Source of the DNA: an uncultured Ignavibacteria bacterium
Lineage (GTDB): Bacteria > Zixibacteria > MSB-5A5 > CAIYYT01
DNA: 64,000 bases
Assembly: GCA_964592145.1 (NCBI GenBank)
Contig: CAZQBX010000002.1
Coordinates: 33,634-97,633 of the forward strand
Direction of reading: 5' to 3'
Under the pieces are notes generated by a model, which saw nothing but the letters and a program-made list of their open reading frames with translations, did no database searches and had not been told where the DNA came from. Position numbers and translations under genes: made by a program. Positions 50,996 through 61,653 of this stretch are shown here, piece after piece (positions within the stretch are counted from its first letter, which is position 1; every line of letters starts with the position of its first letter).

Positions 50996-51301
50996 TTATG
51001 TCCTGTGCGGTTTGAAGGCAAACTCTCGGATGCTCATCGACTCGGGTACCGGATATACGCCGGCGCCAGCGCAAAGTGGGCAAGGGCTCTTGTCAGACTG
51101 GCGAATCTCGATCATGCCGGATCCTCTACAAGCGTAACAGTCCTTGCCGGAAGTATCCTGTCCCTTGCCAAAGCAGTACATGCAGACGTGGGCGTGGTTC
51201 GGCGTTAGGCAGCGGTTGTCGACCCAGCCGCGCCCGAGGCATTCCGGGCAGGTTTTTGGCGGCCCTTCACCGGATCGCGGCCGATGCTTCTCGGTTGACA
51301 T
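50996..51301 (-). CDS. small DnaJ-type zinc-finger protein (4x CxxCxGxG)
   Basis: CPECLGRG, CMYCFGKG, CYACRGSG, CPLCAGAG; the last gene of the hydrogenase operon. The start is uncertain (ATG at 51301 or the ORF-track 51328). Confidence 0.6.
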   Translation of the reverse strand: MSTEKHRPRSGEGPPKTCPECLGRGWVDNRCLTPNHAHVCMYCFGKGQDTSGKDCYACRGSGMIEIRQSDKSPCPLCAGAGVYPVPESMSIREFAFKPHRT

Positions 51302-51782
51302 AGATTTTCTCTCCTGTATGCAATGCAAGCCATTGATCGATGCTCGCCAACGCCGGTTCGATAGCAGCCATTACCTTGGCGGTCATGGTCTCGCTCAGCG
51401 TAGTCACATCAGCGACCTCAACGGCAAGCACATCAATATGCTTCGGCATTTGGTATCCAAGCTGACTCCCCAACTTTAACGCCGTCGGGAGACTCATCTG
51501 GTGGCTGGAGGTGAGATTTCGCGATGGTGTCAGTGTCCCCATTGGGAAGAAGTGTAGGGTTCCAGGCGGAACGCCGCCGGTCACGATACTGTCAATGAGT
51601 AGGACTTTGCTTCTTCTGTTGAGCAAATCCAGCAGGCCGAATCCGGCAACCGGAGCGAATATTACCTCGACCCGGTCACACTCGTGCCGTCTTGTGTGCA
51701 GTATCCCGGCAATTGTCGGTCCGAACGAATCGTCTGACAGAACTTCGTTTCCAAGACAAAGAATCAAGAATGGCTTCAACAT
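51267..51782 (-). CDS. [NiFe]-hydrogenase maturation endopeptidase (HyaD/HycI/FrhD family)
   Basis: LGNEVLSDDSFGP and the DxxH region; overlaps the mvhA stop. Confidence 0.85.
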   Translation of the reverse strand: MLKPFLILCLGNEVLSDDSFGPTIAGILHTRRHECDRVEVIFAPVAGFGLLDLLNRRSKVLLIDSIVTGGVPPGTLHFFPMGTLTPSRNLTSSHQMSLPTALKLGSQLGYQMPKHIDVLAVEVADVTTLSETMTAKVMAAIEPALASIDQWLALHTGEKIYVNREASAAIR

Positions 51783-53260
51783 TGCCTTTTGACGACCTCG
51801 ATTACTTCGCCACTCTCCGCAGAATGAACAACAATCTCCAGAGGCATCTCACCCGGAAGCGAGTGCGTCGCGCAACCAAAACATGGATCGTAAGCGCGAA
51901 AAGCCATCTCAATCCGATTGAGTACGCCGTCGGTAATGGTCGTACCCTTCTTGATCAACCCCTCGGCGGCGCGCTTGATTGACATCGTAATCGGCGCATT
52001 GTTGTTGGTCGTACCGACAATGAGATTTGCTTCGGTGACGATTCCATTCTGATCGGTCTTGTAGTGGTGCGTCAAGGTACCGCGCGGCGCTTCGACGGTG
52101 CCGACGCCCTCGCCAACGATGCCTGTCGGAGGTTCGAGGATGTGATCGGAAGTTATCTCGTCATCCTTGGCTTGCTCCAAAGTGGCTTCGCAGGCAAACA
52201 TCAACTCGACTACGCGCGCCCAGTGTGTTGCCAACGTAGAGTTGACCGGTATCTTCCCAGTGCGATCTCCAGTCAACGTTTCAAAGTAGCGTTCGTACTC
52301 GGCGTGTGCGAGCGGTGTCGCCATACCATCGGCGACATTGAGTCGAGCCAGCGGCGTTGCTTTGTAAACACCAGAGTCCATTCCATCGACGAACCCCTTC
52401 CAACCGACTTTCTTCAAGTAAGGGTACTTGAGATAAGAATAGGGCTCGACGCGCTCTTCAACATACTGGAGATAGTCCTTCGGCTCGTATTTGGCATGTT
52501 CCGATCCGTCGGGTGCTGTTACACGTACTTTGCCGTCATAGAAGGTGACGTGATTGTTGTCATCAACCAGTCCCATATTGTAGGTTTGGTGCGCATAGGA
52601 ATCAGAAAGAATCATTTCGAGATAAGTCTTGTTCGCAAGAACGATATCATTCAAAACCTGAATCGTGAACTTGGCGAACTCGACCATTTCTTCACCGATC
52701 TTGATGATTTCCTGTTGCTCTTCTTTGGTGACGCGTTTGCTCATTCCGCCTGGTAAGGCGGTGACCGGGTGCACTTTCTTACCGCCGATGATCTCGATCA
52801 CACGCTGACCGCGGGCCCGCTGGGCAATGACCTTCTTGCCGACATCCAGACCTACCTTGGCGATTACACCGAGGATATTGCGCTCAGCTTTCGGTGCGTC
52901 GGGACCACAGACGAAGTCCGGCCCGCCCAGAGCATAAAAGTGAGTTGTGTGATCACCTGCATAAAACGCGTTGTAGACTAATTCGCGCAATTTGCGCGCC
53001 GCCGACGGAATAGTAACGCCGTATACGGCATCAGCGGCCTTTGCCGACGCCATGTGATGTGCGTCAGGGCAGACACCGCAGATTCGGGTGGTAATGCGCG
53101 CCAATTCTTCGACCGGCCGCCCCTGACAGAACTTCTCGAAACCGCGAAGTTCCGGAACCTGGAAGTAACAGTTGGCCAACTCACCATCGTCGTTGATGAA
53201 CAGGTGAATCTTGCCGTGCCCCTCAAGGCGCGTGATCGGATCGATGACAATGCTCTTCAT
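51776..53260 (-). CDS. mvhA: [NiFe]-hydrogenase large subunit, Mvh/group-3 type
   Basis: N-terminal RICGVC and C-terminal DPCFGCATH Ni-Fe ligands with a short post-His tail for protease cleavage. Confidence 0.93.
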   Translation of the reverse strand: MKSIVIDPITRLEGHGKIHLFINDDGELANCYFQVPELRGFEKFCQGRPVEELARITTRICGVCPDAHHMASAKAADAVYGVTIPSAARKLRELVYNAFYAGDHTTHFYALGGPDFVCGPDAPKAERNILGVIAKVGLDVGKKVIAQRARGQRVIEIIGGKKVHPVTALPGGMSKRVTKEEQQEIIKIGEEMVEFAKFTIQVLNDIVLANKTYLEMILSDSYAHQTYNMGLVDDNNHVTFYDGKVRVTAPDGSEHAKYEPKDYLQYVEERVEPYSYLKYPYLKKVGWKGFVDGMDSGVYKATPLARLNVADGMATPLAHAEYERYFETLTGDRTGKIPVNSTLATHWARVVELMFACEATLEQAKDDEITSDHILEPPTGIVGEGVGTVEAPRGTLTHHYKTDQNGIVTEANLIVGTTNNNAPITMSIKRAAEGLIKKGTTITDGVLNRIEMAFRAYDPCFGCATHSLPGEMPLEIVVHSAESGEVIEVVKRQC

Positions 53261-54228
53261 ACTTGCACCCTCCGCAGTAGCGACCCGGCCATGCTGAAGC
53301 GATAGAATGTTCCCAGCGGATCGGGAATGGTGTTGATGATCTGTTCGATCTCTTCCGGATCAGTAGAATCGATCACGCTGGCCAGAGCCGAGACCATCTT
53401 GGCACCCTGGTCATTGATGTTTGACGGGAGCCCATAGCAGCCGCGACACGGCATTCCCGCTTTGACGCATTTGGCTCCACAGCCGGAACGAGTTGCCGGT
53501 CCAAGACAGACGATGCCTTGCTCCATCAGACATAGATTCGGATCAGTGACCTTGGCAAACGGGCGTGTGAAGGATTTGATCTTCTTGATATTGCGTTCGC
53601 GCGGGCACTCGTCACAACAGCTTTTGTCGGTTGCGCCGAGAACTGTCCCCTTGGGAGGCAGTGGCTTGTTGTTCTGGAGAATGTCGATTACCGCCATGAC
53701 CGCGTTGACTATTTGATCGGACTGGGGCGGACAGCCGGGAATGTAGTAGTCAACCTCAACTACCTGATCGAGTGATCGAACTGTATTCCAGAACTTCGGA
53801 ATGGTAATGGTCCCTTCGGAAACCTGAACTTCCGGCTGCGGTTCGACCTTGCCACCATTGGCGAGCGAAGGTGATTTGTGATAGACGTAATCGAGGATTA
53901 TCTCTTTGTTGAAGAAGTTCGCCAACGCCGGAATGCACCCTTCGCCGGCACAACTGCCGAAGGCCACCAGGACCACCGATTTTTGGCGCAGCAGTTCGGC
54001 GAGTTCGTAGTTTTCACTAGTCCGAATTGCGCCGTTGAAGAGCGTTAGCGTGATTGACTTGTCTTCCATTGCGCGGACATCGTCGTACTTGGTATCCATC
54101 GCGCAGGGCCAGAAAACGACATCAAAGAAATTCGCCACATCGAGGATCTTCTCTTCGATATCGAGAATGGATATGTCGCAGCCGCCGCATGAGGAGGCCC
54201 AGTATATGGCAAGTTTAGGTTTAGACAT
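53257..54228 (-). CDS. mvhG: [NiFe]-hydrogenase small subunit, MvhG type
   Basis: [23 protein letters not shown] proximal cluster motif. The start ATG at 54228 sits 7 nt after GGAGGTG; the ORF-track start at 54249 is not needed. Confidence 0.9.
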
Positions 54229-54670
54229 GTTGATGCACCTCCTCGGCATTGGGGTCGAAGTTGTAGTCGTGCAATTTCAATGGTCCCAAGGCGCGAATCT
54301 GTTCCGTGAACTCGGTGATGACCTCCTGGAACCGGCCGCCTTCCGAAGCGGAAACCCATTCGAGACGCATCCGGTTGCGAGCGATGCCTAATTCCTGAAG
54401 TAACAGCTGCGTCAGGGGCATTCGACGCATGCACTTGTAGTTTCCTTCGATGTAGTGACAATCGCCGGGATGACAGCCGCAAATCAACACACCGTCGGCG
54501 CCGCGGCGGAAGGCATCGAGGATAAATGCCGGATCGACGCGGCCGGAGCACATCACGCGAATGCTGGTCACATTGGGCGGATAGTGCATGCGTGCAGTGC
54601 CGGCGAGATCGGCGCCGGTATAGCTGCACCAGTTGCAGAGAAAGCCGACAATTTTCGGTTCAAAGCTCAT
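54221..54670 (-). CDS. mvhD: methyl-viologen-reducing hydrogenase delta subunit MvhD (FlpD domain)
   Basis: CNWCSY...CSGRV...[10 protein letters not shown] cysteine pattern of MvhD. Confidence 0.9.
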
Positions 54671-56427
54671 GACAATATCCCCTCAATCTGCGCATAGATT
54701 TGTTCATCGGTGAAGTGGCGTCCCTTGATCGCTCCTGAAGGACAAGCCGCGACACAGGTACCGCAGGCCTTGCACAGCGCGGAGTTGACGTGGCTGATCT
54801 TCTTTTCGAGATCAAAATCGATCGCGTGATATGGACACATATCATTACAGATTTTGCAGCCGGAACAAAGCTCGTCCTGGACCTCCGCGTATGTGGCGTC
54901 CATCAGGACTTCGCCCTGGCACAATAGCCTCATGACCTGTGCGGCAGCTGCCGAGCCTTGCGCCACAGAGTCGGGAATATCCTTTGCACCCTGGCAGACA
55001 CCGGCGAGGAAGATTCCCTCGGTTGAAGTTGATACCGGCGCCAGCTTGGGATGGGATTCAATAAACCAGCCATCGGCCCCGACCGAGATGTTGAAACGCC
55101 GGGCAATGTCCTTGGCATCGGCCCGTGCCTCAAGGGCGGTACACAGTACGATCATGTCAACTGGAACTTCGCGGTGCTTGCCGATCATCGTGTCTTCGCA
55201 GCGAACGATAAGTGCGCCTTCGGCTTTCTGTGATTGGCTGGCCGGGACAACTTCGGCACCTTTGCCGCGGATGACATTGCCGCCTTCATCGAGAATTCTC
55301 TGGTAGAATTCCTCGTAACCTTTTCCGAATGAGCGCATGTCGATATAGAACTGATAAACATCAGCCTTGGTCTTCTCCATGATCAAGTGCGAGAACTTGA
55401 GGGCATACATGCAGCAAACGCGGCTGCAGTACTTGTGGTGATTTTCGTCGCGACTGCCGATGCAGTGGATGATTGCTATCCGGCGCGGTTCTTCCCCATT
55501 TTCCAGACAGATCTTTCCACCGGTCGGACCGGCGGCATTGTTCATCTTCTCAAACTCAATGGAGGATACGACGTTGGGATAACGGCCATAACCGTACTGC
55601 TTCATCGGCGTTGGGTCGAAATCGTCAAAGCCGGTTGCCAGGACGACCGCGCCAACTTCGACTTCCTCGAAATCTGCGCGATCACCGTAGTCGATGCAGT
55701 CCTTGGGGCATACCTTCTCGCAGATCATACACCCGCCGGTCTTGTAGTGGATGCAGTTTTCGCGTACGATATAAGGTACGTTCGGGACTGCTTGTCGAAA
55801 TGGCAGTGTGATAGCGGCGTTGGGACCCAGGTTGAGTTCGCGGTGATTGATGACCCGCTCCTCAATGTCCTGCATCTTGATATGCCCGGTCGGGCAGTAT
55901 TTGGCACAGGCACCGCAGAGGATGCAAGCCTCGGAGTCCAGATCGAACGGCGTCGATACATCTCGATCCTGGCCACGATTGATAAAGGTCAGCGCGTGAG
56001 CACCGACAACTTCATCGCAGATGCGAACGCAGAGTCCGCAGAGAATGCAGGTGTAGGTTCCATGTCCCCAGCGTGGTTCCTTGACCCCGAACTTCGCCGC
56101 ATAGTGCTCCAGCAACGGAACCGGCGCGCAGTTGGCCATCAACATTTCCAGATTTGTGCGACGCGCATTAACTACGCGCGGCGTTTCGGTGAAGATTTCC
56201 AGACCGTCCCAGGCGGGATAATTGCAGGCCGTTACGATCTTGCTCCAACCTTTGTTGTTGCGAGCCTCCACGACACAGATTCGGCAGGCAGCATACGGAC
56301 TCATGAACGGGTAGTAGCAAAGAGTCGGAATCTCGATTCCCAACGACTGTGCGGCTCCCAGAATGTATGAGCCTTCTTCAACCTCGATTGCCTGGCCATC
56401 GATCTTAATCTTAACTGTTGCCATCAT
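54667..56427 (-). CDS. fusion: HoxU/NuoG-N-terminal-like [2Fe-2S]/[4Fe-4S] ferredoxin module + C-terminal half of HdrA
   Basis: Residues 1 to about 230 carry 2Fe-2S ([15 protein letters not shown]), a His-type 4Fe-4S ([16 protein letters not shown]) and two 4Fe-4S motifs ([21 protein letters not shown]). The rest matches the HdrA TrxR-like second half ([32 protein letters not shown]) plus the C-terminal 2x[4Fe-4S] ([24 protein letters not shown]). Confidence 0.8.
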
Positions 56428-56433
56428 TGTCTC

Positions 56434-58449
56434 CTAGGCCACACTCGCCGGCTGTTTTGCGGTTTCCTTGGGCTGCCAAAGTTCGCGCGCCCGCTGTTGG
56501 ATCTTGTCACCTTCGCCGCGCTTGACACGCTTGATTGAGTTGTAACGACAAATCTGGTAACAGGCGCCACATTGGATGCACTTGTCCTGAATTATCATAT
56601 GCAGGCGTTTGGGTTCGCCGACGATAGCGTTGGTCGGACAGGGTTTGACGCAGGCATGGCAACCTGTGCAGGTATTGTCGATGGCGTGCGCCACCAGTTC
56701 CTTGCAGACACCGGCCGGACAGCGTTTATCGCGAACGTGTGCGATGTATTCCTGGCGGAAATAACGGATTGTGGACAGCACCGGATTCGGTGCTGAACCA
56801 CCGAGTTGGCATAAACTGGTGTCGATGATGACCTGCGACAGTTCCTCGAGGTGTTCGATGTCCTCCATCGTGCCGTTGCCTTCGCAGATCTTGTTGAGAA
56901 TGTTCAGCATCACGACAATGCCTTCACGGCATGGCACGCATTTGCCGCACGATTCCTCCTGCAGGAACTTCAGAAAGTACCGTGCGACATCGACCATGCA
57001 GGAATCTTCATCCATTACGATCATGCCGCCTGAGCCCATCATCGAACCGGCTTTAGTGAGTTCATCGAAGTCGACCGGTAAGTCGAGCAGGCTGATCGGT
57101 TCATCCTCCTCGCGAATGTCGCCGTGCGCAACCATACTGGCGTGTACGGACGATTCGGAAGTTTCGACAATGAGAGTACCGCCTGATGGACCACCGGTTT
57201 GCACAGCTTTGAATCGTTTCTTATTAGGGACGCCGCCGCCGATGTCGTAAAGAATCTCGCGCAGGGTAATTCCCATTGGAACCTCGACCAGACCGGTGTT
57301 GTTGATCTTGCCCGTTAATGCAAATACCTTGGTGCCTTTGGAATTGGGGGTTCCGATCGAGGCGAAATATTCGGCGCCCTTCTCAATGATGACCGGGACG
57401 TTCGCCCAAGTTTCGACATTATTCAGATTTGAGGGTTTCTCCCAGAGTCCGGCTTCCACTGTGTGAATATACTTCGCCCGCGGTTCACCGACTTTCCCTT
57501 CAAGCGATGCCATTAAGGCGGTCGATTCACCGCAGACAAATGCGCCACCACCCCGGGATATTTCGATCTCGAAGTTGAACCCGGTCCCAAGAATATTCTG
57601 CCCGATCAGACCGTACTCACGCGCCTGATTCATCGCAATGGTCAGATTCTTAACCGCCAGGGGATATTCGTTGCGGACATAGACGAATCCGTCGTTACTA
57701 CCGATCGCAAACGCGCCGATGACCATCCCCTCAATGACCATGTGGGGATTGCCTTCAAGCAGGGAGCGATCCATGAATGCTCCGGGGTCGCCTTCGTCGG
57801 CATTGCAGATAACGTATTTGGGTTGGCCTTTGGCATTGCGGCAGGACTCCCACTTCCGGCCGGCTGGATACCCGCCGCCGCCACGACCACGCAATCCGGA
57901 TTTTTTGACTTCATCTATGATCTGCGTCGGAGCCATTTGGGTTAGCGCCTTCACCATTGCCTGGTATCCACCAAGGAGAATGTAGTCGTTGATCGAGGTC
58001 GGATCCATGTATCCGTTCCTGCCAAATATCAAACGCATCTGCTTCTTATAGAATGGTATGTCCTTTTCAAGTTTGATGACTTGCTGCGATTGTGGATCGC
58101 GATAGAGCAGTTTATTCACCAGATGGCCGCCCTTGATAGTCTGTTCCCAGATCAGCTTGGCATCCGCGGGGCGGACTTTCTGATAGAAGATGCCCTGTGG
58201 TTGGACGACAACCAACGGTCCGCGTTCGCAGAATCCGTGACAACCTGTTGTCTTGATCTCAACCTCGTTCTCCAGATGGTCATTGACGATTTCTTCTCGG
58301 AAAACCTTTGTGACGGCTTCACAACCACACGCCAGGCATCCAGTGCCGGCGCAGATGGTCAGGACCGTTTTGTTCGCATTGCGGTTGCTCTTGATCTTTT
58401 CGCGCAACTTTGTCAAGTCGCCAGGCGATTGAAGCTTTACGTCTTGCAT
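56434..58449 (-). CDS. NuoF-like NADH-binding FMN flavoprotein with N-terminal [2Fe-2S] and C-terminal 2x[4Fe-4S] (HydB/HndC/HoxF type)
   Basis: GRGGGGYPAGRKWE FMN/NADH site, SLBB domain, N-terminal thioredoxin-like Cys cluster (CAGTGCLACGCE), C-terminal CTGCHACVKPCP / CIQCGACYQICR. Confidence 0.92.
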   Translation of the reverse strand: MQDVKLQSPGDLTKLREKIKSNRNANKTVLTICAGTGCLACGCEAVTKVFREEIVNDHLENEVEIKTTGCHGFCERGPLVVVQPQGIFYQKVRPADAKLIWEQTIKGGHLVNKLLYRDPQSQQVIKLEKDIPFYKKQMRLIFGRNGYMDPTSINDYILLGGYQAMVKALTQMAPTQIIDEVKKSGLRGRGGGGYPAGRKWESCRNAKGQPKYVICNADEGDPGAFMDRSLLEGNPHMVIEGMVIGAFAIGSNDGFVYVRNEYPLAVKNLTIAMNQAREYGLIGQNILGTGFNFEIEISRGGGAFVCGESTALMASLEGKVGEPRAKYIHTVEAGLWEKPSNLNNVETWANVPVIIEKGAEYFASIGTPNSKGTKVFALTGKINNTGLVEVPMGITLREILYDIGGGVPNKKRFKAVQTGGPSGGTLIVETSESSVHASMVAHGDIREEDEPISLLDLPVDFDELTKAGSMMGSGGMIVMDEDSCMVDVARYFLKFLQEESCGKCVPCREGIVVMLNILNKICEGNGTMEDIEHLEELSQVIIDTSLCQLGGSAPNPVLSTIRYFRQEYIAHVRDKRCPAGVCKELVAHAIDNTCTGCHACVKPCPTNAIVGEPKRLHMIIQDKCIQCGACYQICRYNSIKRVKRGEGDKIQQRARELWQPKETAKQPASVA

Positions 58450-58970
58450 TACTTGGCCTCCCCTGACTTATGAACTCGTCCGGCGCGAACGTCGTTGAGC
58501 ATCGTTTCGGTCTTCGAGACGGTCATGTTACCAAAGTAAACTTCGTTGGCGGTCACGAGTGGTCCGAGGGCGCAGGCACCGAGACAGTTCACGGTCTCAA
58601 GGCTGATTTCGCCGTCGGGAGTGGTTTCTCCCGATTTGATCTTCAGGTCACGTTCCAGCTTGTCAACGATTACGGTCGCTTGCCGAACATGACAGGCGGT
58701 GCCGGTACAAACACAGATGTGGTTTTTACCTTTTGGCTTGAGGCTGAAGGTGCGATAGAAGGTTGCAACCCCATAAATCTGTGCAAGCGGCAATTTCATC
58801 GTTTTCGAGACAGCGCGCATCGCTGACTCCGGCAGATAACGATAGTGCTTTTGAATGTCCTGAAGGATCATGATGAGTGCCGACGCCTTGGCGCCATACT
58901 CGGCCACAATTTGATCGATCGCTTCCTGGACGTCATACTCTTCTTGCGGAGCCGCAGGTAATGTGGTCAT
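58449..58970 (-). CDS. NuoE-like thioredoxin-fold [2Fe-2S] subunit (HydC/HoxE/HndA type)
   Basis: CVCTGTACHV...CLGACALGP motif. ATG at 58970 follows GGAGGTGA by 8 nt; the ORF-track start at 59063 is a spurious extension. Confidence 0.88.
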   Translation of the reverse strand: MTTLPAAPQEEYDVQEAIDQIVAEYGAKASALIMILQDIQKHYRYLPESAMRAVSKTMKLPLAQIYGVATFYRTFSLKPKGKNHICVCTGTACHVRQATVIVDKLERDLKIKSGETTPDGEISLETVNCLGACALGPLVTANEVYFGNMTVSKTETMLNDVRAGRVHKSGEAK

Positions 58971-59932
58971 GATTGCTTCACCTCCGCAGGCAGTAGGTCT
59001 TTTTCGGGCATTGGTTGAGCCCCTGTGAGAACCGTCAAGTCGTGCTTTGGCCCCATTCGCCATTTGTCTTGAACGTCGAGTAGGCGCCCTTCACGATAGA
59101 CCCGGTCGCCCAGGATCATGCGGCGACGAGTTGGTGTCGGCACGCTGGGGCAGGCTTCGAAGCAGGCACCGCAGCTGTTGCATTTTGTGGTGTCCACATA
59201 CCGGGGTTTCTTCTTAAGTTTGACCGTAAAATTCCCCAAATACCCGGTCACCCCTTCGACTTCAGTCCAAGTCATTAGGCGAATGTTCGGGTGTTTTCCG
59301 ACTGCAACCATTTTCGGAGTCAGAATACAAGCGGCGCAGTCGAGCGTTGGAAACGTCTTATCAAACTGCGCCATATGACCGCCGATCGTGGTTTCCTTTT
59401 CGACGAGGATAACTTTGAAGCCGGCATCCGCAATTTGTAGGGCTGCTTCAATCCCGGCTATTCCGCCGCCGACGATGAGTACCTGCTGTTTGATCGGGAC
59501 GCGGCGCATGTCGAGCGGTTCATGAAGCCTGACTCTGGCAACCGCCGCCCGCACCAGTGAGATCGCCTTGGCCGTGGCAGCTTTAGGATCGAGAGTTACC
59601 CAGCTTACCTGTTCGCGAATGTTCGCCATTTCAAAGAGGTAGCGATTGAGTTGAGCGCGTTCGCAGGCGTTACGAAATGTCGGTTCATGCATCAGCGGAC
59701 TGCAGGCCGCGACCACGACGCGATTGAGTTTGAGTTCGCGGATGTCTTTCTGAATCAGTTCTTGTCCCGGTTCCGAGCACATGAACTTGTATTGCCTGGC
59801 GACAACCACGTTGGGAAGCGTGCTGGCGATCTCGGCGACCTTACCCACATCAACCATTTTGGCGATGTTGTTTCCGCAGTGGCAGACATAGACGCCGACG
59901 CGGATTTCCGAGCCGTTTTGCGACTGGTTCAT
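58967..59932 (-). CDS. N-terminal half of heterodisulfide reductase subunit A (HdrA): Cys-cluster domain + first part of FAD domain + one ferredoxin motif
   Basis: IRVGVYVCHCGNNIA...CSEPGQ...VVVAACSP, FAD dinucleotide fold VLIVGGGIAGIEAAL...LDCAACILTP, then CNSCGACFEACP. It ends without the second half of the TrxR-like fold. Confidence 0.8.
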   Translation of the reverse strand: MNQSQNGSEIRVGVYVCHCGNNIAKMVDVGKVAEIASTLPNVVVARQYKFMCSEPGQELIQKDIRELKLNRVVVAACSPLMHEPTFRNACERAQLNRYLFEMANIREQVSWVTLDPKAATAKAISLVRAAVARVRLHEPLDMRRVPIKQQVLIVGGGIAGIEAALQIADAGFKVILVEKETTIGGHMAQFDKTFPTLDCAACILTPKMVAVGKHPNIRLMTWTEVEGVTGYLGNFTVKLKKKPRYVDTTKCNSCGACFEACPSVPTPTRRRMILGDRVYREGRLLDVQDKWRMGPKHDLTVLTGAQPMPEKDLLPAEVKQS

Positions 59933-60813
59933 ACGGCCACCACTCCTTTCAACGCTATTAGCTTGCTTGGTTCGATAAGCAACTTATCGAGTCCGAGTTC
60001 CGCAGGCGAAAGTCCCAGTGCGATTCCGACCAAGTGCGTGAAGTATATGACCGGTATGTTGAAATCCGTCCTATACTGCGCGTTGACTTTGCCCTGAAAG
60101 CCCTCAAGATTCACGTGGCAGAGGGGGCAGGCAGTGGCGATGACGTCACCGCCGTTCTCCGCGGCTGCTTGCAGAAGTTCATGACAGAGTTTCAGGGCAA
60201 TCTGCTCGTCGGTGGTCATTAGCATTCCACCGCAGCAGCGTACTTTGGGCGGGTAGTGTACCGACTCGGCGCCGAGGGCACGGATCAGGGTGTCCATTGT
60301 CTGGGGATCATCTTTGTCGTCGAAGTAACCGACCGGCCGAACGATCTGACAACCGTAGTATGGGGCGACTTTAAGGCCGGTGAGCGGCCGCGTGACTTTT
60401 GTCTTGAGCACTTCAATTCCAACGTCATTGACGATGATATCAAGCGGATGTCGCACGTTGACTGGTTTGGTATAGGACATCCCCGCCGCAGCGAGAGCCT
60501 CGTTGATCTTCTTGCCTTCCTTGGGATCCCAGGCAATGTGTCGATTGGTTTTGCGAAGTATCGTGTAGCAGCTACTGCAGGGTGCGCAGATTTCGAGACC
60601 CATTTCCTGCGCCAGCGCCAGATTACGCGCACTGATCGAATAGCCGACGATTTTCTTGGCGGACATGTACATTGTCGCGCCACAGCAGTTCCAGTCCTCG
60701 ATTTCGCGAAGCCCAATTCCAAGCGATTTGAAGACAGCTCGCGTCGACTTGTCATATGGGCTGGCCGTATGCTCGAGACTACAACCAGGGTAGTAAGCAT
60801 ATTCTTGCATCAC
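59929..60813 (-). CDS. hdrB: heterodisulfide reductase subunit B (two CCG domains)
   Basis: YYPGCS / WNCCG and PYYGCQ / RCCGG motifs. Confidence 0.92.
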   Translation of the reverse strand: MMQEYAYYPGCSLEHTASPYDKSTRAVFKSLGIGLREIEDWNCCGATMYMSAKKIVGYSISARNLALAQEMGLEICAPCSSCYTILRKTNRHIAWDPKEGKKINEALAAAGMSYTKPVNVRHPLDIIVNDVGIEVLKTKVTRPLTGLKVAPYYGCQIVRPVGYFDDKDDPQTMDTLIRALGAESVHYPPKVRCCGGMLMTTDEQIALKLCHELLQAAAENGGDVIATACPLCHVNLEGFQGKVNAQYRTDFNIPVIYFTHLVGIALGLSPAELGLDKLLIEPSKLIALKGVVAV

Positions 60814-61397
60814 TGTTCTCCAAACTCGTTAGCTTTTTTGATGATTGCCTGGATTTGATTGACGCGCCTGATGCGTTTCGGAAGCAGCCCCATTCTGCCG
60901 CGTCGAATCATTGCAATCCCATAACCTGATGTCGTGAATAGTTTCACAATGTGTGAGCGCATAAAGTACTTGATGCCGAGGCCGAGTTCATAATTGCGTC
61001 CGTACTTATAGACGTTGTTCATAAATGTCGAGGAGAGGCTATGAACTGGGAAGTTGGCGGGATAGATCTTACGATGCATCGCGATTCGCTTCAGTGCATA
61101 CATTGTGTCTGTGACCTTGATTCCGGAAGGACATCTGACGGTACAAGCATAGCATGATGCGCAAATCCAGATCGCCTTGCTGCGCAGGATGTCCTCCAAG
61201 CGGCCGGCTCTGAACATTGCGATGGTTTGGCGTGGCGTGATGTCCATAAACTGCGATACCGGGCAGGTTCCCGTGCAGGTTCCGCACTGAAGACACTTCT
61301 TGATCTTGTGTCCGTCAGGAAATGAGTCGATTTGTTCCCAAAAAGCGGCGTGCAGTTCAGCCTCTGTGGGCGAAGTGGTCTTGATTGCTTCAGTCAT
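60810..61397 (-). CDS. hdrC: heterodisulfide reductase subunit C (2x[4Fe-4S])
   Basis: CLQCGTCTGTCP and CASCYACTVRCP. Confidence 0.9.
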   Translation of the reverse strand: MTEAIKTTSPTEAELHAAFWEQIDSFPDGHKIKKCLQCGTCTGTCPVSQFMDITPRQTIAMFRAGRLEDILRSKAIWICASCYACTVRCPSGIKVTDTMYALKRIAMHRKIYPANFPVHSLSSTFMNNVYKYGRNYELGLGIKYFMRSHIVKLFTTSGYGIAMIRRGRMGLLPKRIRRVNQIQAIIKKANEFGEQ

Positions 61398-61653
61398 AAG
61401 ACCTCAATAGATTGAAAGTACTCGAATTCGGAAGAGAGCACCGGATTGGGTTACTCACCGTGTCAACAAGATAGCATCGTGACACGCACCCAATTATCGA
61501 TGTTGATATCTATGATGGAATTAATCAGCTTTTCAGTTAGGTGTCAAGAGAAATATTTCACAAAGTAATAGTATAATATAAAACAAAGAATAGCTTCATT
61601 GTGGTGAAATACGCCCTCCTTTGAACTGATCAAGCCCGGTCGATTGGGTGGTG

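Follow-up and report, generated by a model that had tools for sequence, protein, structure and literature searches.

An Eleven-Gene hdr-bfu-mvh Locus With Overlapping Junctions in a Zixibacteria-Type Genome: A Plausible Case of Translational Coupling

Gene Organization of the Locus

The DNA analyzed here, hereafter the window, is a stretch of 64,000 nucleotides (nt) from an uncultured bacterium labeled Ignavibacteria (assembly GCA_964592145.1, contig CAZQBX010000002.1, positions 33,634 to 97,633 of the forward strand), and our subject is a cluster of hydrogenase- and heterodisulfide reductase-related genes in which most neighboring genes overlap. We read the minus strand of the window from 61800 to 50900 and recomputed every junction. 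Taken as a whole, the locus is probably best explained as a single minus-strand operon of eleven cistrons, extending from approximately 61.56 to 51.0 kb in a Zixibacteria-type genome. The cistrons follow the order hdrC, hdrB, hdrA-N, nuoE (bfuC), nuoF (bfuB), a nuoG-N::hdrA-C fusion gene, mvhD, mvhG, mvhA, hycI, and a zinc-finger open reading frame (ORF). The gene names assigned in an earlier sequence-only reading were confirmed by Pfam and NCBIfam searches.

All eleven genes lie on the minus strand. The first cistron, hdrC (60810-61397), encodes 195 residues with two 4Fe-4S motifs (Pfam Fer4_8/Fer4_17, 4Fe-4S dicluster; best NCBIfam match HdrC) and starts at ATG 61397, with the Shine-Dalgarno (SD) site GAGGT ahead of it. 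The product of hdrB (59929-60810), 293 residues when counted from ATG 60810, contains two CCG domains (Pfam) and matches TIGR03288 from residue 3. The third gene, hdrA-N (58967-59932; 321 residues), covers the HdrA N-terminal domain, the initial part of the flavin adenine dinucleotide (FAD) domain, and the first cysteine motif of the inserted ferredoxin domain, followed by a conserved tail of 58 residues. The nuoE/bfuC-like gene (58449-58970) encodes a thioredoxin-like 2Fe-2S protein of 173 residues, in which the full PF01257 profile spans residues 18-161 (1e-50), and the nuoF/bfuB-like gene (56434-58449) encodes a protein of 671 residues with an N-terminal 2Fe-2S domain, a domain for flavin mononucleotide (FMN) and NADH, and a C-terminal 2x[4Fe-4S] domain (Pfam). 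In the fusion gene (54667-56427; 586 residues), a NuoG/BfuA-like N-terminus (2Fe-2S + 2x[4Fe-4S]) is joined to the remainder of HdrA. Downstream lie mvhD (54221-54670; 149 residues; Pfam FlpD, 8e-56), the hydrogenase small-subunit gene mvhG (53257-54228; 323 residues; Pfam Oxidored_q6; best NCBIfam match VhuG), which is preceded by the SD site GAGGAGGTG, and mvhA (51776-53260; 494 residues), which encodes the [NiFe] large subunit (Pfam NiFeSe_Hases; best NCBIfam match VhuA). The last two genes encode a HycI-type hydrogenase maturation protease (51267-51782; 171 residues; Pfam HycI, TIGR00072) and a DnaJ-type CxxCxGxG zinc-finger protein (50996-51301; 101 residues; SD site AGGAGAG), whose match to Pfam DnaJ_CXXCXGXG (1.5e-7) falls slightly under the curated cut-off.

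Ten junctions connect these genes; overlaps are given below as negative and gaps as positive spacings. At the 5' end of the operon, hdrC and hdrB meet in GTGATG: the hdrC stop ends at 60810, such that GTG 60813 gives hdrB a 4-nt overlap and ATG 60810 a 1-nt overlap (TGATG). An ATGA joins hdrB to hdrA-N (59932-59929), hdrA-N to nuoE (58970-58967), the fusion gene to mvhD (54670-54667), and mvhG to mvhA (53260-53257), each a 4-nt overlap, and nuoE and nuoF have base 58449 in common in a TAATG (1-nt overlap). Longer overlaps are found between mvhD and mvhG (ATGTCTAA, 54228-54221; 8 nt), between mvhA and hycI (ATGTTGA, 51782-51776; 7 nt), and between the protease gene and the zinc-finger ORF (35 nt). 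No overlap is present between nuoF and the fusion gene, where the stop TAG (56436-56434) is followed by ATG 56427 or ATG 56424, with 6 or 9 nt in between. In all, six junctions are at -4 or -1, three overlap by 7, 8, or 35 nt, and one is a gap of +6/+9. Stop and start codons at these junctions lie within the proximity by which coupled co-directional gene pairs are recognized.

These results refine the sequence-only reading, which had described nine consecutive overlaps within 53257-61397. It listed eight (4, 4, 4, 1, 4, 8, 4, and 7 nt), every one of which is found where it was placed, with overlaps of 1-8 nt. The run is, however, interrupted at nuoF/fusion, the 35-nt overlap was missing from the list, and the span leaves out the last of the junctions listed.

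Conservation of the Operon and Its Junctions

A scan of one genome per species identified this gene order at 16 loci, in metagenome-assembled genomes (MAGs) labeled Zixibacteria, GN15, or Ignavibacteria, the last probably mislabeled; these are referred to here as the Zixibacteria loci. Protein identities range from 56 to 98%, and from 61 to 98% for the fusion protein. Junctions hit by apparent frameshifts or truncations were left out of the counts. Three contigs (L011, L017, and L023) carry such apparent lesions in hdrA-N, nuoF, the fusion gene, mvhD, and mvhA, most likely as assembly errors.

All assessable Zixibacteria loci have ATGA (or GTGA) at hdrB/hdrA-N (13/13), hdrA-N/nuoE (11/11), fusion/mvhD (14/14), and mvhG/mvhA (15-16/16). 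At hdrC/hdrB, 12 of 14 loci have TGATG or TAATG, and nuoE/nuoF is by turns at -1 or -4, with only L004 at -14. Spacing is more variable further downstream: mvhD/mvhG is at -8 in eight close relatives, at -14 in L006, and at +1 to +9 in the other seven, and mvhA/hycI ranges from -7 to +5. No junction in the 16 loci is wider than +14 nt, though the exact form varies. The same operon was also found in contigs labeled Eisenbacteria (L026), Thermoanaerobaculaceae (L027), and KSB1 (L028), where hdrB/hdrA-N and fusion/mvhD are again at -4 and the remaining spacings lie between -8 and +21. ATGA is consequently invariant at these two junctions across Zixibacteria and three other phyla.

The fusion protein belongs to a family of at least 120 clusters (90% identity) that share at least 66% identity with the query at 99-100% query coverage, and whose members bear no annotation other than "heterodisulfide reductase subunit A" or "4Fe-4S dicluster domain-containing protein". 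Judged from these sequences, the operon is widespread, occurring in Zixibacteria and in MAGs labeled KSB1, Eisenbacteria, and Acidobacteriota.

Start Codons and Shine-Dalgarno Sites

Internal start codons had been preferred in the sequence-only reading over the longer starts of the ORF track, and this choice is well supported by conservation and codon-position evidence. If the longer starts were real (ATG 59063 for NuoE, ATG 54249 for MvhG, and GTG 60813 for HdrB), some of the short overlaps would be artefacts of start choice. Although these are the first start codons of their open frames, 88 of the 106 substitutions among relatives within 58971-59063 fall on third positions of the hdrA-N frame, and this segment therefore encodes the HdrA-N tail rather than a longer NuoE. 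The Pfam NuoE profile is also already complete from residue 18 of the short form, and the short nuoE start keeps both its ATGA/GTGA and its SD site in 11/11 assessable Zixibacteria relatives. For mvhG, ATG 54228 is universal, with the upstream ATG 54249 present in three relatives only and lacking an SD site; for hdrB, ATG 60810 is present in 14/14 assessable Zixibacteria relatives and GTG 60813 in three. The independent gene calls in L026-L028 likewise take the short forms. The longer starts of nuoE, mvhG, and hdrB were ruled out by this conservation and codon-position evidence, making an origin of the overlaps in start choice extremely improbable. Our alignments support ATG 60810, rather than the ORF-track GTG, as the start of hdrB, and the fusion gene probably starts at its second ATG (56424), which is conserved among relatives and better spaced from the SD site than the first.

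The sequence-only reading had also placed strong SD sites, GGAGGTG, inside the upstream genes. An SD-like site does precede every start, but only two of these sites read exactly GGAGGTG, those of nuoE (58985-58979) and mvhG (54242-54236), both on the minus strand; the remaining sites are the weaker variants GGAG, AAGGAG, GGGGAGG, TAGGAG, GAGGGG, GGAGGG, and GAGGT. With the anti-SD taken as canonical, there being no 16S ribosomal RNA gene in the window, the predicted duplex energies at 11/11 starts are -6.3 to -13.1 kcal/mol, several of them very strong (-10 to -13 kcal/mol). Among the 342 internal in-frame ATGs of the whole window, 12% reach -6 kcal/mol and 3% reach -8 kcal/mol. The 3' end of the SD site is 6-8 nt ahead of the start in eight of the eleven cases, and the downstream SD sites lie within the final codons of the gene before. 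At the one gapped junction, the nuoF stop TAG doubles as the first part of the fusion-gene SD site TAGGAG (56424-56436), an arrangement kept in nearly all relatives.

Translational Coupling and Its Alternatives

No spacing between co-directional prokaryotic genes is commoner than a short stop-start overlap, and such overlaps are known to couple translation, above all in heteromeric complexes. In the mechanism that we propose, a ribosome ending one cistron would stop within a few bases of the next start and would reinitiate there, aided by the embedded SD site. The structural subunits would thus be made from one messenger RNA, possibly under Rex control, in roughly fixed proportions and spatially close to one another. 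An iron-sulfur flavoenzyme of many subunits, with its HdrA divided over two polypeptides, would be well served by such expression. By analogy with published cases, translational coupling at these junctions is plausible. The earlier statement that the products are "made stoichiometrically as one complex" exceeds the evidence, the stoichiometry having been inferred. The arrangement itself is an ordinary, well-documented form of operon organization and involves no new mechanism.

The closest comparison is with the overlapping gene pairs of Huber et al. (2019, PMC6728339; 2023, PMC10666635). In the earlier of these studies, 13 of 14 overlapping (-4/-1) pairs were strictly coupled even with an SD site present (PMC6728339); coupling was lost at a spacing of approximately 20 nt, and overlaps are enriched among heteromeric complexes (PMC6728339; PMC10666635). 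Like those pairs, the genes described here are co-directional, overlap through ATGA or TGATG/TAATG with the SD site in the upstream gene, encode putative subunits of a heteromeric complex, and keep very short distances in relatives. Unlike them, the present operon is known from sequence alone, contains overlaps of -7, -8, and -35 as well as the +6/+9 gap, and extends its run to a maturation protease gene and a zinc-finger ORF, whose products probably do not serve as stoichiometric subunits.

We used a simple gene model of the window to compare the operon with the 28 other same-strand neighbor pairs. Overlaps of 1-8 nt are present at 8/9 operon junctions versus 5/28 other pairs (Fisher p = 2.5e-4); versus the 11 other closely spaced pairs, five of which overlap, the difference is marginal (p = 0.058). 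The uniformity of the operon is thus unusual, but the excess is modest when judged against what operons of this genome look like.

The marginal p-value is one of several observations that weigh against coupling. The nuoF/fusion junction is always a gap (+4 to +14) and overlaps in no relative. Corresponding junctions in other phyla are open by +9 to +21 nt, and unsplit hdrCBA-mvhDGA operons are spaced by approximately 100 nt in Desulfobacterota-like MAGs and mostly by +4 to +21 in Bacteroidales MAGs, so the overlap is not needed for the enzyme. The conservation of ATGA is partly trivial, since the start and the stop are each essential. The overlaps extend to the protease gene and the zinc-finger ORF, whose products are not expected in stoichiometric amounts, and the SD energies presuppose the canonical anti-SD.

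Much of this could also be accommodated by neutral compaction, whereby the overlaps would reflect stop/start turnover in a compact genome and ATGA would be kept for its essential start and stop, with no selected coupling. Under this explanation, overlaps at 5/11 of the other closely spaced pairs, the inclusion of the non-structural hycI and zinc-finger ORF, and the wider spacing of the same enzyme genes in other lineages would all be expected, and simulations indicate that short overlaps arise easily via start/stop replacement (PMC3887535). Several observations nevertheless speak against it: within Zixibacteria, the -1, -4, and -8 forms interchange without wide opening, two junctions remain at -4 across four phyla, and SD sites are kept inside coding sequence at the right spacing. 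We consider compaction without selected coupling distinctly unlikely.

A different question is how ribosomes reach the internal starts. Hairpins masking ribosome-binding sites were not detected, as 65-nt windows at the 11 starts are no stabler than shuffles (z-scores of -1.4 to +2.2, 9/11 positive). The classical model of coupling by unmasking of ribosome-binding sites is hence unsupported, because the junction windows show no stable structure. Strong SD sites in weakly structured junctions, a further point against coupling, would equally fit independent initiation at each cistron; ribosomes would then be recruited de novo to each internal SD site, the overlaps would be incidental, and subunit ratios would be set by the strengths of the ribosome-binding sites. 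Consistent with this possibility, each start has an accessible SD-like site, all relatives have a gap at nuoF/fusion, the operon exists in other phyla with gaps of +9 to +21 nt, and the contribution of the SD site differs widely from gene pair to gene pair (Huber et al., PMC6728339). Yet the strict upstream dependence of 13/14 tested overlapping pairs, despite their SD sites, argues against it (PMC6728339), as does the confinement of Zixibacteria junctions to +14 nt or less while their exact form changes. Independent initiation is accordingly a credible but unlikely explanation.

Translational coupling within a single operon thus remains the reading that we favor. The overlaps fix which start codons belong to nuoE, mvhG, hdrB, and the fusion gene, and they make it likely that the nine structural and two accessory genes are expressed as one unit.

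Transcription Unit and Rex-Like Sites

Signals that would divide the operon are not in excess within it: there are six sigma-70-like promoters compared to 8.6 in shuffles, and 15 terminator-like hairpins compared to 12.7, with the promoter scan covering consensus sigma-70 types only, which may not suit this phylum. Upstream of hdrC, alignment of 15 regions revealed a single conserved block, represented in the window by TTGTGAAATATTTCTC (61542-61563, minus strand), which abuts TTGACA. The block can be written TTGTGAAnnnnTTCTC (also TTGTGAAatatTTCTC) + TTGACA and resembles the Rex operator TTGTGAAnnnnTTCACAA, from which the window site differs by three mismatches. The motif has a unique exact match in the window, where 0.05 chance matches are expected at up to three mismatches, and the site is conserved in 12 of 14 Zixibacteria relatives. 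We interpret 61542-61563 as a candidate Rex-like operator beside a -35-like box, in what is probably the single promoter region of the operon. The loci from other phyla each have one Rex-like box as well, with one or two mismatches and as the sole such match per locus, at -91 (L026), -204 (L027), and -106 (L028) from hdrC. The presence of these boxes upstream of hdrC suggests NADH/NAD+-responsive control.

A second candidate site lies within the operon. The Rex-box-like palindrome TTGTGAAACTATTCACGA (60932-60949, minus strand) is inside hdrC, 448 nt past the ATG, and has one mismatch to TTGTGAANNNNTTCACAA. It recurs with zero to two mismatches at the same position in 10/14 Zixibacteria relatives, being perfect in L008 and L014, and by our own estimate approximately 0.01-0.02 chance matches would be expected in 64 kb at no more than one mismatch. 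Such a site, or cryptic promoters, could divide expression into more than one transcription unit or create an internal control point, in which case the subunits would not be made in fixed proportion. However, the palindrome is not found in L026-L028, and its bases specify a conserved V-K-L-F-T peptide; it may therefore simply reflect that coding function. The lack of excess promoters or terminators also speaks against internal control, as do the absence of intergenic room between the overlapping genes and the failure to find a rex gene in the window. Internal division of the operon is very unlikely on this evidence; the palindrome itself may be either a real operator or a coding by-product. 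A tblastn search with a Bacillus subtilis Rex sequence gave no rex match in the window or the flanks of the Zixibacteria operons, which is a weak negative.

Other regulatory genes were observed near related clusters. The tblastn search did detect rex-like ORFs with 36-39% identity to B. subtilis Rex in two Bacteroidales MAGs, where they adjoin hdr-mvh clusters (L018 8438-9046 and L019 172-774; minus strand in locus coordinates). A sigma-54-dependent response regulator is encoded upstream of the operon in L026 (1-434) and L027 (346-2766), together with a histidine kinase in L027, which hints at lineage-specific regulation.

The Encoded Enzyme

The product of the operon and its Rex-like control are more notable than the overlaps themselves. 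HdrA is not encoded as one polypeptide with an intact inserted ferredoxin domain; instead, nuoE, nuoF, and the NuoG-like N-terminus lie between its two halves. HdrA-N residues 8-263 align to residues 10-266 of HdrA in PDB 8RVU (E = 7e-103), and in the fusion protein residues 5-199 align to the NuoG-like chain 9MQX_A and residues 159-585 to HdrA 245-653. In the NCBIfam HdrA2 profile, HdrA-N accounts for positions 1-256, the fusion protein for 259-640, and MvhD for 647-774. HdrA is therefore cut clean between the two cysteine motifs of the inserted ferredoxin domain, the domain anticipated to be the low-potential exit of HdrA (PMC9012536; PMC12350162). Cys251/254/257/261 of HdrA-N are invariant among relatives, and the two [4Fe-4S] clusters of this domain would draw their ligands from two polypeptides, Cys251-261 of HdrA-N and Cys225-240 of the fusion protein. 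The HdrA-N tail (residues 264-321; 58967-59140) has no counterpart in solved HdrA structures and is under strong purifying selection, being conserved as RRMxLGxxVxREGRLLDVxDKxxxGPKHDLTxLTxAQPxPE. These 58 residues may dock the Bfu module.

The interposed genes resemble the Bfu family. NuoF has the architecture of BfuB, as seen from its cysteine positions and from Pfam domains at residues 24-101, 181-352, 487-571, and 591-644, and its best solved relatives are BfuB/HydB chains (7T2R_B, 2e-231; 9MQX_B; 8A6T_B; down to 1e-182), compared to 1e-108 for Nqo1 of complex I. Relative to those chains, NuoF has approximately 40 extra residues (SVHASMVAHGDIREEDEPISLLDLPVDFDELTKAG; residues ~428-470; 57060-57170) between its SLBB and 4Fe-4S domains. 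As expected of a BfuC, the NuoE-like 2Fe-2S subunit is encoded beside the BfuB-like one, directly upstream of nuoF. The hydrogenase is of group 3c at the sequence level: MvhA has both nickel-binding cysteine pairs (RICGVC at residues 59-64 and DPCFGCATH at 458-466) and, after the second motif, a 28-residue tail, as expected of an extension that a dedicated protease removes; hycI is the next gene.

Comparison with described systems brings out what is unusual about this combination. The operon shares with MvhADG-HdrABC (PDB 5ODC, 8RVU; group 3c [NiFe]) all six subunit types in the usual hdrCBA-mvhDGA order, an HdrB with two CCG domains, an MvhA with both nickel-binding cysteine pairs, and an HdrA covered almost residue for residue by HdrA-N and the C-terminal part of the fusion protein. 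It differs in that HdrA is split within the inserted ferredoxin domain, with NuoE, NuoF, and NuoG-N spliced in, and in that the host is bacterial. The heterodisulfide of coenzymes M and B (CoM-S-S-CoB) is an unlikely substrate here, because Zixibacteria RBG-1 is reported to lack CoM/CoB synthesis (PMC3903129). With the Bfu family (HydABC, NiFe-HydABCSL 7T2R, NfnABC; Schut et al., 2022, PMC9304861), it shares the BfuB architecture of NuoF, the BfuC-like NuoE, and a fusion N-terminus carrying a 2Fe-2S and two 4Fe-4S clusters, as in a Type 2 BfuA with A1/A2/A4; in contrast to that family, the BfuA-like part is fused to the C-terminal two-thirds of HdrA. A Bfu type linked to Hdr and Mvh does not appear in the text of the 2022 classification or in one of its supplementary files (PMC9304861).

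Bfu and HdrA modules have been described together in one complex only, the class II benzoyl-CoA reductase BamBCDEFGHI (bioRxiv 10.64898/2026.04.10.717634), which combines the Bfu/HydBC-type BamGHI, the HdrA-type BamE, the MvhD-like BamF, and the HdrBC-like BamD. That enzyme has a tungsten active site and no hydrogenase, and its Bfu module feeds HdrA via BamI, the C-terminal ferredoxin domain, and the MvhD-like adaptor. In the present operon, the BfuA-like domain is instead covalently joined at the inserted ferredoxin domain, leaving MvhD and MvhAG in the usual donor position. The HdrA paralogues of ANME-1 (anaerobic methanotrophic) archaea (Chadwick et al., 2022, PMC9012536) are similar in that a nucleotide-linked redox module interrupts the same HdrA domain, the presumed low-potential exit. 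There, however, the module is an NfnB-like in-frame insertion within a single polypeptide, whereas here the gene is physically split by a three-gene Bfu cassette.

From these alignments we tentatively suggest, short of holding it probable, that the operon encodes an undescribed supercomplex of three modules, in which a [NiFe] hydrogenase of the Mvh type and a Bfu-type module for NADH and ferredoxin (NuoE, NuoF, and the NuoG-like domain) would be permanently joined to an HdrABC core. The clusters of the split HdrA would bridge two polypeptides, and the complex would contain two different bifurcation sites in series. The bifurcation sites would be the FAD in HdrA and the FMN/FeS site in Bfu, linking H2, NAD(H), ferredoxin, and a disulfide. 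The ATGA junctions flanking the HdrA halves and the Rex-like operator would then be adaptations for co-assembly and NADH-responsive control. If so, this would be the second enzyme to unite Bfu and HdrA, after class II benzoyl-CoA reductase, and the first with a hydrogenase. No named Hdr-Bfu-Mvh operon with a split HdrA, from Zixibacteria or any other organism, was found in the openly accessible literature; for Zixibacteria RBG-1, the account of Castelle et al. (2013) goes no further than an "MvhADG/HdrABC hydrogenase complex". The larger value of the locus lies in what it encodes: in a gene cluster conserved across several phyla, a Bfu-type NADH/ferredoxin module is spliced into the low-potential exit of HdrA beside an Mvh hydrogenase. 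If the proteins form one complex, it would represent a new way of chaining two electron-bifurcating modules and a testable route by which uncultured sediment bacteria could connect pools of thiols and disulfides with H2, NAD(H), and ferredoxin.

The accessory genes and surroundings of the operon were also compared. Orthologues of the zinc-finger ORF follow hycI in seven Zixibacteria loci and in L027 and L028, and the protein may be a maturation or assembly factor. In the window, the neighbors of the operon are unrelated to it, namely folE upstream, across a 256-nt spacer, and a gene for a MiaB-like radical-SAM (S-adenosylmethionine) protein downstream. In L027 and L028, the operon is flanked by hyp maturation genes.

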